Below, piece after piece: positions 1,860 through 29,500 of a stretch of DNA of 45,276 nt. Under the pieces are notes generated by a model. That model was not told where the DNA came from. It worked only from the letters and a program-made list of their open reading frames with translations, and did not search any database. The first letter of the stretch is position 1; each line of letters begins with the position of its first letter. The DNA is from Pseudomonas phage Clew-1. A program made the translations under genes and the position numbers. Location: the sequence record PQ790658.1; one strand, written 5' to 3'.

Positions 1860-1903
1860 GGATAGACCTGGGGTGTGTACTATGACGCGCCCCAGGTCTA
1901 TCC
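1860..1903 (+). promoter_or_regulatory. Perfect 14-bp inverted repeat whose loop carries a GTACTATGAC motif copy
   Basis: GGATAGACCTGGGG at 1860-1873 pairs with CCCCAGGTCTATCC at 1890-1903. The 16-nt loop is tgtgTACTATGACgcg. It lies immediately after the stop of gene 1373-1855. Confidence 0.6.
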
Positions 1904-1957
1904 CTAGAGTGCATGGTAGGTCCGTGCATTGTAGCGATAGACCATCAGGAGGTTTCC

Positions 1958-2146
1958 GTGGGTTACTGTATCTTTGGGCAGGCTCGTTCCATCCAAGATC
2001 GGGGTTATGTGTCTGGTTTCTGCGATGCAAGGGTAGGTTGGCAAGGGGGTATTGTTTACCGCTGGGTTTTTAAGGACGGTAAATTTGCCTGCGGTGTATA
2101 CTCTACGGATGGTATCCGTCTGAGCGTCTGCGGGTGGGTCAAATGA
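1958..2146 (+). CDS. Hypothetical small Cys-rich protein (62 aa), GTG start
   Basis: AGGAGG sits 7 nt upstream of GTG at 1958. Preferred over the overlapping Arg-rich ORF 1873-2073. Confidence 0.4.
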   Translation: MGYCIFGQARSIQDRGYVSGFCDARVGWQGGIVYRWVFKDGKFACGVYSTDGIRLSVCGWVK

Positions 2147-2283
2147 AGTCACCCTACGAAGCCGCCCATGAACGTGCTCAGATGATTAACCGTCTTAAGA
2201 AACTCACTAGGATGATCCGGGTGCATCCCGATCCCCGGTGGATTGTTGAGCGCCAGGAACTCATAAGGAAACTTAGCAAATGA
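2143..2283 (+). CDS. Hypothetical small protein (46 aa)
   Basis: ATGA start/stop overlap with the upstream gene, which suggests translational coupling. Below the 60-aa ORF-track cutoff. Confidence 0.35.
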   Translation: MKSPYEAAHERAQMINRLKKLTRMIRVHPDPRWIVERQELIRKLSK

Positions 2284-2360
2284 CCATCGCTATCATTGTA
2301 TCCAGCATTGGTATCGCCTACTTCTTCTTTCGTGATTGGAAAGAGGAAATGGGTATCTAA
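2280..2360 (+). CDS. Hypothetical 26-aa hydrophobic peptide
   Basis: ATGA overlap with the upstream small gene. MTIAIIVSSIGIAYFFF is a single predicted transmembrane helix. Confidence 0.3.
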   Translation: MTIAIIVSSIGIAYFFFRDWKEEMGI

Positions 2361-2377
2361 TCCCAACTGATGAGGCC

Positions 2378-25220: not shown

Positions 25221-25264
25221 AAAAAAAAGGCCCCAAGGGTATCATCCCAAGGGGCCTTATCTTT
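25221..25264. terminator. Bidirectional intrinsic terminator where the two arms converge
   Basis: An A8 run, then hairpin GGCCCCAAGGG-tatcat-CCCAAGGGGCC, then TTATCTTT. This gives a U-tract on both strands. It sits between the last plus-strand gene and the last minus-strand gene. Confidence 0.75.
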
Positions 25265-25619
25265 AGCTCCGTAGAGCGTTCAGCAGTGTGTTGAACTTAT
25301 CAACGAGTGCCTCGTGAGTATCCGTATAGGAAGCCACGGGGATCTCAGATATCTTATCCTGGATGGAAGCCGCAATGGCTTCATATAGGCCACTCACTTC
25401 GCTAGCCTTAGGCTTCCAGTTACCTGGTTTAGCCTCACTAGCCTTAGCACCCACCTCCAGAAGCTTAGGCTTCCCCTCAATATCCTCCCACTTCACTGGC
25501 TCAAAGTCTTTCGGGCCAATGACTTGTCGGAGGGTCCCATCTTCATTGCGTACAGCAATAGCTTTCGATTGAATAACGAATACACTGTTGCCGTCGTTGT
25601 CAGAGATATAACCTGCCAT
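25263..25619 (-). CDS. Hypothetical virion-arm protein (118 aa)
   Basis: Last gene of the minus-strand arm. Confidence 0.55.
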   Translation of the reverse strand: MAGYISDNDGNSVFVIQSKAIAVRNEDGTLRQVIGPKDFEPVKWEDIEGKPKLLEVGAKASEAKPGNWKPKASEVSGLYEAIAASIQDKISEIPVASYTDTHEALVDKFNTLLNALRS

Positions 25620-25633
25620 AATCTAACTCCTAA

Positions 25634-26521
25634 TTAAACTGCCGATTTGAAGGTACCCACGGTACCACCGAAAGGATACACTCGGACAGTGCATTCCCCA
25701 AATTGACCATCAGTCTTCGTCTGATTACCCTTAGCATACCAAGCCTTGTCCGGAGATACAGCGAACTTGATCTTAGCCGACGATCCCTGGATAAAGTGGA
25801 ATTGACAACCTGGGGTTACATCTGGACCAAGAGTAACGGTAATATCCGTAGTCCCCTGAGACATGAAGAACCAGCCAGACTGCTGCCTAGTCAGGGTAAT
25901 GTTCTGGGTAAGCTGCTGAGTGTTGACCACATTACCACCCAGGTGAGTAGTCACAAGGCGGGGGTCAAGGTAGTTCTGTTGGAGAGAACCAATGTTCTGC
26001 ACAGGACCACGCATGTCATCAAACTGCTCGATAATGTAATCCCCGATGGTACCACCGTTTTGGTCATCCGGGCCAATCACGTGCTTAATAGCCACGTAAG
26101 TACCAAGGTGTTCCCTACGGGGGTCTACCCGGAATTCACTACCGAAGGCAGTACCGCAAGGCGCCTCAATCATAGTCTCCGAGAAGAGGCCAATCACGTG
26201 GCCAGGGTCACGGTTACCACCCGAGGTTTCCCCAGGAGCACCCACGAGGGTATTGACCAGGACAGAGGGGATAACGGCCTCTGAGGGGTTCTCCGGGAAG
26301 GAGGCTGTAACGTTCTCTACTACCAGGGCTGCGTTCTCCTTAGCTGCATAATAGTCAGGGAGGAACTCTGTAGCGGTAACGATGTTAGTATTTACCCGAC
26401 CGGCATCCGAGGTAATCTCAATGAGATCACCATCGGCATTACGTCGGAAGACTTTTGGCACATCAACCACGTAGGCACGGCCACCAGGACCAGCGGCATC
26501 AGTTTCTACATAAGTTGCCAT
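25634..26521 (-). CDS. Putative structural (tail/particle) protein (295 aa)
   Basis: Sits within the structural arm. Rich in Thr, Gly and Asn. Confidence 0.55.
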   Translation of the reverse strand: MATYVETDAAGPGGRAYVVDVPKVFRRNADGDLIEITSDAGRVNTNIVTATEFLPDYYAAKENAALVVENVTASFPENPSEAVIPSVLVNTLVGAPGETSGGNRDPGHVIGLFSETMIEAPCGTAFGSEFRVDPRREHLGTYVAIKHVIGPDDQNGGTIGDYIIEQFDDMRGPVQNIGSLQQNYLDPRLVTTHLGGNVVNTQQLTQNITLTRQQSGWFFMSQGTTDITVTLGPDVTPGCQFHFIQGSSAKIKFAVSPDKAWYAKGNQTKTDGQFGECTVRVYPFGGTVGTFKSAV

Positions 26522-26532
26522 ATTACTTCTCC

Positions 26533-29500
26533 TTAAAGATCCAGATCATCTTCCATCGCTTCCATACCGGCAACGAAAGGACGTGCTGGAGTTTGCTTAT
26601 ACAAGAACTTCCAGATTTCACCTGCGGATGGGTCATCCCCAAACGAAGCGATAGTTTTACCAACAGCCATAGCACCCTCAGTTGCAGCACCAGCTACTGG
26701 ACCCAATAGTACCTCTGCGGGGGTAGTCCCTCGACGGTAACCCGTCAGCATGTCGTAGATCATAGAAGCCTGGAGTGGCATCTGTTGCATCACTACGTCC
26801 ATCATCCGTTGTTCTGGACTACGGGTATCCTCTCGGCTAGACCCACCGAACTTAGCCAGTTGACGAAGCTCATCCTGGAGATACCCCAGGCTCATCATCA
26901 GACCAAGAGTGAAGGCTACACCTGCGGCACCCATACCAGCGTTGGTCCAAGAACCAGCGAAGTGTGGGCTCAGTCGTCTACGGAACATCGGTAGGATGAT
27001 GTTACCATAGGCTGCTGGGTAACCCTTCAAGAGGGAGAACATCTGAACGTTTCCGTTACTCATCCACATAGGCTTATCAGCGAAGGTGGGGTCGAGGACT
27101 ACCTGATCCACAAACCGACGCATAGCCAAGGTCTTGACGTTGTTAGCCATCAGGACTTCAGATGGGGTAGCCGGGGAGATCAACTTGATGGCATCTTGCT
27201 GGCTACCGATGTTAACCCCCATTTCCCGAAGCTGATCAACCTTCAGAGCACCATTGGCAGAACTGAAGGGGAGCCCTGCGGCTAGATCCATCAGGTTATT
27301 CTGATAGACCCGCTTGGCAGTCTCTGTTGCAAATACTCGGTCGACATGGGTTAGGATGGACAAGCCGTTGATGAGGAACTGACCACGGATCACCTTTTGG
27401 ATGGTAGAGTTAAACACCTCAGCGCCAACCCGGTCAGCCATCAGAGAGGTAGCAGAGGCCAGGGTGTGGTTCATATCACTCATAAACCGACCGGTCTCAG
27501 ACTTTGGAACCCCACTGTAGATCCTGCGGGCTGCTTGCCTTACTACCTCACCCATGGTTGGGAGTACAGCCCCAAGGGTGGGCATAACCCCAGCCTTAGC
27601 GAATGGTAGGCTGAACTCGGTTAGGGTCGAGAAGCCGGCGAGGGGAAGTCTGGAGAGCACGAGGGCACCAGACGTAACAGCCGCTAGCTTCTTAAGGTTA
27701 GGATCTTTGATACGACCGTGCATACCATTATAGGCATCCACTAAGTCATACATCCGATCCACTTCTTCCTTGGTAACCCGCTTACCAGCCCGTTGAGCCT
27801 CAGCTACAGCAGAAGCAATCTTAGCGTTAGCCTTCTCTCCGTTGATACCAAACCGTTCGGTAAAGGCAATCCGGTGGGAAGCCCCTTCGAAGTAATCTCT
27901 GATTTCCTGGAGACGCTTCTTAGGAGTATCATTAAGAGAATACTTATTGAGGATCTCTTGGGGTACGGAACCAAAGGCCCGACTCTCTTCCAGCTGACCA
28001 TACTTAGGTACTGCATCACTCTGGGCAAACCGTCCACGAAGTGTATCTGGATCACCCTGGATACGGTAACGTGGGTCTACTTCCCAAGCCCCGGTCTGCT
28101 GGTTCTGAGTAACCAATCGGTTAACCTCAGGGGCAGTGTTACCACGAGTATCATCCGAGACTTCTGCCAGCCAGTTGGCTACAGCATCTTCAGCAGCTTG
28201 TCGGCTCTGGAAGTACGGAGTGATATCGTTCAGGAACTCTGGGGATTGAACCTTCTCAGGGGACAGCCCAAAGGGCATATAGTGGGGGATGGTCCCAACA
28301 GACATGCCACCACGGTTAACAGCCTCATTCCTTACGTCATCCAGCAAAGAACGCAGACGGGTAGCCTCAGGGGTGTTGACACCAGCGGATGTATCAGCGA
28401 TAATCTTGTCAATCTCTTTGGAAGACTTACCCTCAAAGATGTTATCAAGTTCGGAGTTCCACTTACCTGCCTGGAGTTCCTGGTCCTCAAAGATAGTCTT
28501 ACCAGAGGCTCGCTTACCACTCATGTCAGCCCTAAAGATCTCAGAGAACTCACGGGCGATAGGAGAGGCCTTAGCAAGTGGCTCTAGAAGGGACGTAGCT
28601 TCGTTTCCAAGGGCATCCCAGGCTTTCTTAATGGTACCCCTAGGCTCAAGCTCAGAAGCCTTAGGAGGTGCCTCAGGGGCGTTAGGATCAACCACGGCAG
28701 AGCCAGCTGAATCCTGATGACGTCCCAGGGTGTCCAAACCAGAGGATACAGCACCACCGGCAGTACCCATAGCGGTACCAGTGAATGCAGCAGTCAGGAG
28801 GTTATCCATGAACTGCTCAGGGGATTGGGTCTGCCCAACGGCATCATACGCGATAGTGTCCTGGAGGGCCTGCTGGGCACCAGAGGTAACACCTTCAGCC
28901 ACACCAGAGACTACAGCGTGTTTACCAGCTTGGGTTACAGCCTCAATGGCGGTCTGCTTAGGTAGTCCCGATTGGACCAACATCTGGTAAGCGCCATCTT
29001 TACCGATGTGCTTGAGGAGTGGGGCAGCGATAACACCAGCACCCGCAGTGTCTAGTACCGAGAGACCAGCACCACCGAGGACTGCGGTCCATGGGTTGCT
29101 TTGATCGGGGTCTAGCTCCTTCATCTGGTTACTCAGGGCACCCACGTTGATACCCATGGAGCTTAGGAAGGAACCAATGAGAGCTCCACCCATACGACCT
29201 GGGGCCCCAAATACAGAGCCAGCCTTAGCACCTGCGGCACCACCAGCAAGTACAGGGGCCATCGAAGGGAGAGCCTCTACAATATTATTCTTTAGGAACG
29301 AACCGATGGATGGGATATCTTGGATATCAGCGAAAGATCGAACATCAGGGGTTCCGTACTGTGACGCTTCCTGAGCATTCTCCTCGGCAATCTGGGTGCC
29401 GTAGTCTTTCAGGTAGTCACTGCCAGTCAATTCACCGAGGGTAGCAAGGGTGCCACCAATGTTAGACTGCATGGTATCAACCCCGCGACCAATCGCAGAG

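Follow-up and report, generated by a model that had tools for sequence, protein, structure and literature searches.

The genome of Pseudomonas phage Clew-1 raises the question of why one short word, TACTRTGAC, recurs on one DNA strand and never on the other, and which protein, if any, acts on it. T5 has been known since the 1960s to carry localized nicks in its packaged DNA, and the LUZ24/tf group since 2012. The window analysed here (the whole stretch of 45,276 nucleotides, record PQ790658.1) is a complete genome of a Bruynoghevirus (LUZ24-like) phage with terminal repeats of 183 bp, which shows 91-97% identity to other Bruynoghevirus genomes and gene-level homology to tf, Rembedalsseter and UFV-P2.

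Number, strand and context of the motif

A regular-expression scan of both strands found nine exact matches to TACTRTGAC, at 1878, 2998, 5239, 7524, 9489, 14349, 20749, 24845 and 29357, all on the plus strand and none on the minus strand, just as a sequence-only reading of this DNA had reported; 0.52 matches were expected over both strands, and the highest count in 100 dinucleotide shuffles was 3. The wider pattern TACTRTGMC added no further match in the window. The conserved G that the same reading had noticed before the motif, and usually also after it, is present at 9/9 and 8/9 sites, respectively, the exception being the A that follows site 24845. A search made without prior knowledge of the motif ranked TACTATGAC joint first among the strand-asymmetric 9-mers of the window (7:0).

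The lack of an exact minus-strand copy is uninformative by itself, because only about 0.26 copies are expected there. The strand bias reaches significance once one-mismatch neighbours are counted: all 13 sites with at most one mismatch, exact sites included, lie on the plus strand, and near-cognate words are purged from the bottom strand (0 versus about 8 expected, P ~3e-4). This avoidance covers both gene arms. A scan for strand bias had been named beforehand as the check that could refute the sequence-only reading, and its outcome was 9:0 for the motif and 13:0 with the near-cognates. The effective site is a 10-mer, TACTRTGAC-G, found in 67 of 78 sites, with GAC-G as its best-conserved 3' portion.

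Eight of the sites are located in the plus-strand gene arm, and the ninth (29357) is antisense within the gene of a 1055-aa virion protein (26533-29700), a placement that had been described correctly before. Whether in one of three different coding phases, in intergenic DNA or antisense to a late gene, the sites keep to a single physical strand. The window thus combines the consensus, a one-strand excess over chance and a LUZ24-like genome with shared positions, which are the marks of nick sites of the tf/LUZ24 type.

Relation to known nick signals

In phage tf, 14 nicks were mapped at TACT/RTGMC, on the top strand only; the cut follows the fourth base, is ligatable and is present in >90% of molecules, and TACC is left uncut (Glukhov 2012, PMC3517423). 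The same authors had already listed nine one-strand copies in LUZ24 and PaP3. In P1-14Or01, a LUZ24-like phage of P. aeruginosa, read ends pile up at GTACTATGAC (Essoh 2013, PMC3634792), and Rembedalsseter is nicked too, also at AACT sites (consensus WACTRTGAC), the motif being enriched in a cluster of 61 phages that includes Bruynoghevirus (Dougherty 2025, PMC11780129). The motif is hence not new: it is the already known nick signal of LUZ24-like phages, and the consensus that the sequence-only reading had given for them corresponds to the mapped tf sites. What is added here is the 10-mer with its G at position +10, the site-by-site turnover and the bottom-strand avoidance in these genomes. 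No nicking enzyme is named for the LUZ24/tf group in the three studies or in the other literature that we found, in line with the earlier statement that the enzyme is unassigned.

The window shares with tf the consensus, its restriction to the top strand, the location of most sites in the left (early/middle) arm, the genome architecture with terminal repeats of 183-186 bp, the rarity of near-cognate words and their confinement to one strand, and several homologous site positions. The two differ in that R is mostly A here (7/9) and mostly G in tf (13/14), in the number of sites (9 versus 14), in the TGCC variant, which is absent from the window, and in the preceding G, found at 9/9 sites here and not so in tf. 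With P1-14Or01 and the 61-phage cluster, the window has in common the genus, the extended consensus GTACTATGAC, the one-strand distribution and 8-9 sites per genome, and we see no difference in kind between their sites and those of the window. T5/BF23 and phiKMV-like phages likewise carry strand-specific, sequence-associated, ligatable nicks in packaged DNA, of which individual ones are dispensable, but their consensus sequences, R/GCGCRGG and CGACNNNNNCCTA/CTCCGG, are unrelated.

Site-by-site conservation

Among ten relatives, the strand counts of the motif are 5-10:0. A site matrix of the positions common to the window and these relatives showed that five sites are universal, while the rest switch off, mostly through substitutions of T4; for MHN1, five nicks are predicted. 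These comparisons show that a core of sites is conserved, that individual sites are dispensable, and that cleavable look-alikes are under negative selection, most of all on the bottom strand.

The first predicted nick site (TACT/ATGAC, 1878-1886, plus strand as for all those below) is an exact, intergenic match with a predicted cut between 1881 and 1882. It forms the apex of a 19-nt inverted repeat (1860-1878/1885-1903), in which the ACTATG core is the 6-nt spacer (fold energy -39.2 kcal/mol as RNA and -19.0 kcal/mol as DNA). This site is variable, being kept in 5 of 9 alignable relatives and reading TACGATGAC in MHN1. Three predicted sites contain an annotated start codon. At 2998-3006 the ATG of the motif (3002) begins a small ORF; the site is kept in 9/10 Bruynoghevirus genomes and reads TACCATGAC in MHN1, where the homologous ATG is annotated as a CDS start. 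At 5239-5247 the ATG (5243) starts a 72-aa ORF; MHN1 has TACGATGAC here, and the same arrangement occurs at tf sci4 (the start of tf_15), with no detectable similarity between the two ORFs. At 24845-24853, a universal site (10/10 genomes), the ATG (24849) starts the last ORF of the plus-strand arm, and CDS055 of MHN1 begins at the homologous ATG.

The predicted sites at 7524-7532 and 9489-9497 are read in frame as TAC TAT GAC (Y-Y-D), in ORF 7497-8453 and in the gp17-like ORF 9243-9812, respectively. Synonymous changes (TACTATGAT, TACTACGAT) have removed the former from 4 of 9 alignable relatives, and therefore the motif is dispensable there. The latter is universal (10/10 genomes) and corresponds to tf sci6, TACTGTGAC (Y-C-D), which lies in a homologous gene at nearly the same offset. 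Also universal (10/10) is the predicted site TACT/GTGAC at 14349-14357, in frame (Y-C-D) in ORF 14148-14525, where R is A in PaP3 and G in the other genomes. The predicted site at 20749-20757, within the gene of a Gp2.5-like ssDNA-binding protein (20351-20905), is present in 8/10 genomes and reads TACCATGAC in KMVC5-4. The last one, TACT/GTGAC at 29357-29365, is again universal (10/10); since it is antisense in the virion protein gene, it shows that the motif goes with the physical strand rather than with the coding one.

A possible tenth site, AACTGTGAC at 36590-36598 (plus strand), agrees with WACTRTGAC and has a G in front of it. Its probable origin is a chance SNP, because the match is unique to this genome: 8 of 9 alignable relatives have AACTGGGAC and PaP3 has AACATCGAC (0/9 match). 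Three plus-strand near-cognates, TACGATGAC at 11776-11784 and 18202-18210 and TACAGTGAC at 35914-35922, have T4 replaced and are predicted to stay uncut; that at 11776 recurs at the corresponding position in 7 of 8 relatives examined, PSA13 being without it.

A candidate nicking enzyme

The sequence-only reading proposed as the nickase an HNH protein encoded inside a split polymerase gene. This gene, g31 (16695-17006, plus strand), encodes a basic, HNH-like protein of 103 aa (H61-N75-N84), and its status as a candidate holds and is strengthened by the present analysis. The split gene does not, because no intron is present: no intron family was found in the window with Rfam, the polymerase ORF (18644-20281) is uninterrupted, and in all relatives small ORFs separate the gene of the 3'-5' exonuclease subunit (16180-16728 in the window) from that of the polymerase. 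The intron of LUZ24 lies elsewhere, in the polymerase gene at 19180-20024, together with an endonuclease VII-type gene; this location and the absence of an Rfam match rule out g31 as a group I intron or homing endonuclease gene. Intron-encoded HNH homing endonucleases of phage DNA polymerase genes (the I-HmuI type) cut one strand. They share with g31 the HNH protein at the polymerase locus, but g31 lies outside an intron and its presumed targets are dispersed, as opposed to one homing site. A sporadic, mobile distribution would be expected of such an enzyme; g31 is instead universal: it occurs in 104 Pseudomonas phage records, and no other protein of the genome is as well conserved.

The gene is real; the annotations of LUZ24, PaP3, tf, UFV-P2 and Rembedalsseter have it out of frame. 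A codon-position test ruled out that its conservation is a by-product of conserved DNA or of a second, overlapping frame, and the alternative frame, on which the annotations of tf, UFV-P2, LUZ24 and PaP3 rely, is interrupted in Rembedalsseter. H61, N75 and N84 do not vary among 48 diverse homologs, and the model of the protein predicts a ββα-Me fold with the histidine at the end of β1 and a metal ligand on the helix. The g31 protein itself falls below the curated Pfam HNH threshold (E = 0.25, 11.9 bits versus 21.4); 30 of 40 homologs have weak HNH matches (best E 4.7e-4), and PHROG HNH families match g31 at about 1e-4. Sequence and profile searches of the PDB with g31 gave nothing useful.

The best structural matches to the g31 model are the N.phiGamma family, Gme HNH (4h9d) and GVE2 HNH (5h0o), small proteins (about 100 aa) that have a catalytic ββα-Me finger and nick one strand at specific sites (Xu & Gupta 2013, PMC3592412). 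Those small nickases possess CxxC zinc sites, are encoded beside terminase genes and have a specificity of 3-7 bp, whereas g31, an H-N-N variant, has a basic N-terminal block that is distinct and invariant, is located in the replication module, and would require a specificity of 9-10 bp. As g31 has one cysteine, no CxxC zinc-binding motif and a distance of about 25 kb to the terminase genes, a terminase-associated HNH protein of the HK97 gp74/N.phiGamma type was ruled out.

Homologs of g31 were found only in LUZ24-like and phiEco32-like phages and in related phages of Aeromonas, Cronobacter, Proteus and Vibrio. In distant phages the g31 gene is accompanied by TACTRTGACG, conserved copies of which are kept in phiEco32/SU7 and in L040, an uncultured low-GC phage. 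The motif is sparse in loci of the phiEco32 type, with 2-3 positionally conserved sites in these coliphages, and the copies of phiEco32 and SU7 stand ahead of hairpins that resemble terminators, on the sense strand. ICP2 was not supportive as an outgroup, its homolog lacking the N-terminal block and its motif copies lying at start codons on both strands. A search of IMG/VR with the early protein 1373-1855 retrieved one locus only. Several other asymmetric words were set aside: TATTRTGAA in phiEco32 (7:1) is a weak excess with flanks that are not conserved, non-significant after multiple testing; TNCACATAC in L032/L033 (7-8:0) is a local tandem repeat within one gene; and ACTCTGG in phiEco32 (17:1) as well as CAAGGGT and CCTTAGC in the window are attributed to codon bias, because each lacks a flanking consensus.

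Proposed mechanism and alternative explanations

By homology to the nicks mapped in the same phage group, we consider it very probable that the top strand of packaged Clew-1 DNA is cut at the nine sites, and it is likely that the plus-strand (G)TACTRTGAC(G) copies are recognition sites of a phage-encoded site- and strand-specific nicking endonuclease, with g31 as the best candidate. Cuts would fall between T4 and R5, after 1881, 3001, 5242, 7527, 9492, 14352, 20752, 24848 and 29360. The nicks would be ligatable (3'-OH/5'-P) and the bottom strand continuous, so that denatured DNA should give one full-length strand and top-strand fragments of about 1881, 1120, 2241, 2285, 1965, 4860, 6400, 4096, 4512 and 15916 nt. 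That g31 itself is the enzyme is the most likely assignment, to which we give an even chance or slightly better. In this protein, the basic N-terminal helical region with its invariant RGETG..S.D..RH.AR block may read the asymmetric 10-bp site, and the minimal ββα-Me finger (H61 as general base, N75, N84) may cut one strand.

It is possible, if rather unlikely, that the sites are true nick sites served by another phage nickase, namely the metallophosphoesterase (23673-24434), the T7 endonuclease I-like ORF (23207-23680), the 5'-3' exonuclease (21639-22526) or the large terminase (41815-43263), in which case g31 might be, e.g., an accessory nuclease of replication or packaging or a DNA-binding factor. 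The metallophosphoesterase and the endonuclease I-like ORF occur in every clearly motif-enriched locus and are absent from the motif-sparse phiEco32-type loci, their presence follows motif density better than that of g31, and the metallophosphoesterase is highly conserved as well (74/68/73%). However, the genes of these rival nickases are undetectable in L040 and phiEco32/SU7, where TACTRTGACG copies stay conserved, and to our knowledge none of these families is known for sequence-specific nicking at 9-10 bp. Terminase-associated nicking has been proposed in other phages (PMC3592412), but the likely terminase site here is the motif at the terminal-repeat boundary, GGGGAATATCC, which is unlike the nick motif; because the boundaries carry this sequence, the nick motif has no connection with the site of the terminal-repeat cut.

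The motif could also be a binding or regulatory signal, or a translation-start context, at which Clew-1 DNA is not nicked. The start codons at 3/9 sites, the strong hairpin around 1878, the hairpins that follow the phiEco32/SU7 copies and the similar words clustered at ICP2 start codons would suit such a role, which we nevertheless regard as very unlikely, given the mixture of coding, intergenic and antisense contexts on one physical strand, the avoidance in both gene arms and the direct mapping of nicks at the same motif in three related phages, one of them from a P. aeruginosa host. Hardly any credence is given to unsealed replication junctions at primase starts. The genome encodes a T7 gp4-like primase-helicase, the bottom strand 5'-CGTC-3' resembles a T7-type primase site, and the strong conservation of GAC-G fits that origin; but, as far as can be inferred from positions, the fit fails, since the mapped break lies 3 nt upstream of the expected primer start. 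Furthermore, the tf breaks are precise, ligatable and nearly complete (PMC3517423), and phiKMV-like nicks, as cited in that paper, are repaired early and come back late. Chance or codon bias has a negligible probability: codon bias does yield strand-asymmetric words in the window, such as the two mentioned above, but none of the 100 shuffles reached nine copies, the sites fall partly outside coding DNA and, within it, in different frames, and positions are kept, with R varying, across genomes only ~52% identical in DNA (a published estimate, PMC3517423).

Implications

The comparative work narrows the enzyme question to one small candidate gene and one catalytic residue (H61), with defined positive (GTACTATGACG) and negative (TACGATGAC) substrates. 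Natural test genomes are at hand in MHN1, for which five nicks are predicted, and in phiEco32 and SU7, for each of which two or three are predicted at named positions. A confirmed nickase with 10-bp specificity would be a useful reagent, and knock-outs would open the role of the nicks to test. We tentatively suggest that g31 and TACTRTGAC-G form a co-evolving pair of nickase and site, which may reach the phiEco32-like coliphages and uncultured low-GC phages such as L040. If so, nicked genomes would be far more widespread than reported, and the loss of sites by T4 substitution, together with the purging of look-alikes, would constitute a record of ongoing selection on the permitted cut positions.

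A strand-biased, probable nick motif in the Clew-1 genome

Scanning both strands of the Clew-1 genome (PQ790658.1) revealed exactly nine copies of TACTRTGAC, at 1878, 2998, 5239, 7524, 9489, 14349, 20749, 24845 and 29357, all on the plus strand and at the positions listed in the sequence-only reading. Its claim that the minus strand carries no copy also held in this check of strand bias, and the G that it had described before every copy and usually after it was found at position -1 in 9/9 sites and at +10 in 8/9. The expectation for both strands is 0.52 copies, and the maximum among 100 dinucleotide-preserving shuffles was 3. 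Extending the pattern to TACTRTGMC added zero sites in the window. When the window was searched without prior knowledge, TACTATGAC was the joint top strand-asymmetric 9-mer.

The missing exact minus-strand copy is in itself not informative, because only about 0.26 would be expected. Words with at most one mismatch to TACTRTGAC, however, number 13 in the window, all of them on the plus strand; the bottom strand has 0, versus about 8 expected. Near-cognates of this kind are likewise absent from the bottom strand of LUZ24, MHN1, tf, Rembedalsseter and UFV-P2; the avoidance is weaker in PaP3 (3 versus 7.4 expected) and was not seen in phiEco32.

Glukhov et al. (2012) mapped 14 top-strand nicks in the P. 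putida phage tf to 5'-TACT/RTGMC-3', found them ligatable and present in >90% of molecules, reported the words CACTGTGAC, TATTGTGAC and TACCGTGAC as uncut, and had already recorded nine copies, confined to a single strand, for LUZ24 and PaP3 (PMC3517423). Essoh et al. (2013) observed read-end pile-ups at eight GTACTATGAC positions in a LUZ24-like phage of P. aeruginosa (PMC3634792), and Dougherty et al. (2025) described, for Rembedalsseter, 13 WACTRTGAC positions at which nanopore coverage drops, as well as enrichment of the motif in 61 related phages (PMC11780129). The earlier recognition of the repeated word as the TACT/RTGMC nick signal agrees with these nick maps; what it observed is confirmed and its interpretation therefore holds, although the phenomenon, being already described for this genus, is not new. 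By analogy with the relatives in which it was shown, late endonucleolytic nicking of the top strand is most likely in Clew-1 as well. It would be site- and strand-specific, with the cut placed between the fourth and fifth bases of the motif (T4 and R5), and the nicks would persist in the virion.

Genome setting and anatomy of the sites

The window covers an entire phage genome, bounded by direct terminal repeats of 183 bp; its early and middle genes occupy the plus strand up to about 25 kb and its virion genes the minus strand. Identity to Bruynoghevirus (LUZ24-like) phages of P. aeruginosa is 91-97%, the closest being MHN1 (96.7%). The word GGGGAATATCC is found exactly twice in the window (0.02 expected): at 177-187, where it spans the inner boundary of the left terminal repeat, and at 45084-45094, where it spans the beginning of the right one. 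It probably serves as the signal at which the terminase cuts to produce the repeats. Upstream of the small terminase gene lie three tRNA genes (44177-44502, minus strand); relatives have three or four.

At 2998, 5239 and 24845 (+) a small ORF begins with the ATG of the motif, in agreement with the MHN1 annotation, and at 7524, 9489, 14349 and 24845 (+), the last with respect to its upstream ORF, the motif is read in frame as TAC TRT GAC. Of the remaining sites, 20749 (+) falls within the gene of the ssDNA-binding protein but in a different phase, 29357 (+) lies in the 1055-aa virion gene in antisense orientation, and 1878 (+) is intergenic. This diversity of contexts indicates that the signal follows the physical and not the coding strand. 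Site 1878 sits at the apex of a nearly perfect 19-nt inverted repeat (1860-1903; RNA fold -39.2 kcal/mol), which is not an obvious intrinsic terminator, as no T-run follows it. Among 78 sites of eight divergent phages, 67 have G at +10 and a single one has T at -1; in P. aeruginosa phages, 17/18 sites have G at -1. The effective site is thus V-TACTRTGAC-G.

Candidate nicking enzyme

No nickase gene was proposed by Glukhov et al. (PMC3517423), and our literature search for the enzyme behind the motif found no paper assigning it, in line with the sequence-only reading, which had called it unassigned and had pointed to an HNH protein inside a split polymerase gene. The HNH candidate stood, whereas the split polymerase did not. 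The product of ORF 16695-17006 (+), the 103-aa g31, matches PHROG 4590 (unknown function) and, weakly, HNH PHROGs; a Pfam search with this ORF gave no significant match of its own. The window contains no intron, and every relative has distinct genes for exonuclease and polymerase, so that an intron-encoded g31 was rejected. The true LUZ24 intron interrupts the polymerase gene at another place than g31. Comparison of window 16180-20281 with LUZ24 (16516-16935, 19250-19666 and 21666-22115) showed that this intron, with its endonuclease VII-type gene (gp35), is missing from the window, where the polymerase ORF is continuous, as are the free-standing endonuclease genes gp30 and gp40.

The most conserved protein of the whole genome is g31, with identities of 82% in tf, 79% in Rembedalsseter, 85% in UFV-P2 and 61% in phiEco32. 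The corresponding values are 78%, 74%, 74% and 40% for DNA polymerase, and 75%, 82% and 40% for TerL in tf, Rembedalsseter and phiEco32 (UFV-P2 not covered). Substitutions fall overwhelmingly at third codon positions, so it is the protein that is conserved, and by this codon-position test the HNH-like frame is the real gene. At this place five reference genomes have a CDS annotated in a different frame, i.e. LUZ24 gp26 (15622-15930), PaP3 orf38 (29069-29374), tf_29 (16120-16386), UFV-P2 gp33 (16644-16901) and Rembedalsseter CDS0041 (16823-17068), three of the five with a noted 'transmembrane' domain. The difference in frame is probably why the gene was never considered. Another likely case of mis-annotation, of strand or of frame, is the 'ligase-like' minus-strand CDS of the relative MHN1 (8594-9475; window 8243-8890), placed inside the plus-strand COOH-NH2 ligase gene region.

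Association of the site with g31 in distant phages

The analysis covered 48 IMG/VR loci picked for their homology to g31, so the gene is common to all of them by construction. Loci of at least 66% identity all contain the motif, only on the strand of the gene. Over the 534 kb of the 35 more distant loci, the strand of the gene carries six TACTRTGACG words (0.58 expected; P = 3e-5) and the opposite strand one (0.53 expected). The metagenomic phage contig IMGVR_UViG_3300006802_000901 (GC 38%) has only g31, and no other protein, in common with the window; it carries five one-strand copies of TACTRTGAC at 1819-8014 (0.45 expected), four of them followed by G, and its g31-like gene (97 aa, ORF 9673-9966) lies among tail-like genes.

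Only three copies are present in phiEco32, at 27941 (+), 63070 (-) and 70592 (-), which follow the sense strand of each arm and share the flank YTTYTAG-TACTRTGAC-G. Two are kept in SU7, a phage of a different genus, at homologous intergenic positions (64885 and 70308, both minus), with diverged flanks and a different R. A terminator-like hairpin directly follows each TACTRTGACG copy in both phages. Judged from these sequences, phiEco32-like coliphages are predicted to have a few nicks, or to use the site in another role; no report of nicks in this group was found among the papers retrieved.

The nickase could instead be the metallophosphoesterase, the endonuclease I-like protein or the terminase. 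The first two and g42 are the other nuclease-type proteins conserved in the nicked clade, and no homologs of these three were found in phiEco32. ICP2 does not support the association of site and gene. Its WACTATGMC words at 26092, 35120 and 37899 coincide with start codons and are in sense orientation in both arms (SD + ACT ATG AC); part of the motif can therefore arise from a translation-start context, which calls for caution in counting such copies as nick sites. Of these candidates g31 is the most likely nicking enzyme, with an about even chance.

Turnover of sites among relatives

A matrix of sites by genome, drawn up for ten Bruynoghevirus phages, shows 5-10 copies in each, all confined to a single strand. 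Each of the sites 2998, 9489, 14349, 24845 and 29357 occurs in nine or ten of these phages, whereas 1878, 5239, 7524 and 20749 are variable; AACTGTGAC at 36590 was found in the window alone. Four window sites (1878, 2998, 5239 and 7524) are missing in MHN1 (positions 1987, 3402, 5421 and 7707), each through a single substitution while the flanks are otherwise conserved; in three of these cases the change hits T4, the base 5' of the cut (TACG, TACC, TACG). Site 7524 was lost in four genomes through synonymous changes that keep Y-Y-D.

The T4 variants seen are TACG, TACC and TACA, and T4-altered near-cognates occur in the window at 11776, 18202 and 35914. Across genomes, 12 of the 23 non-functional top-strand near-cognates outside the known degeneracy are mismatched at position 4 versus about one in eight expected, and those mismatched at other positions are depleted on both strands. 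As TACC is uncut in tf, T4 variants look like a tolerated dead form of the site. This switching-off could be caused by selection, by nick-associated mutagenesis, or by consensus or sequencing errors at nicked positions in single records. The data go no further than showing that these phages keep a core set of sites, can do without individual ones and are under selection against cleavable look-alikes.
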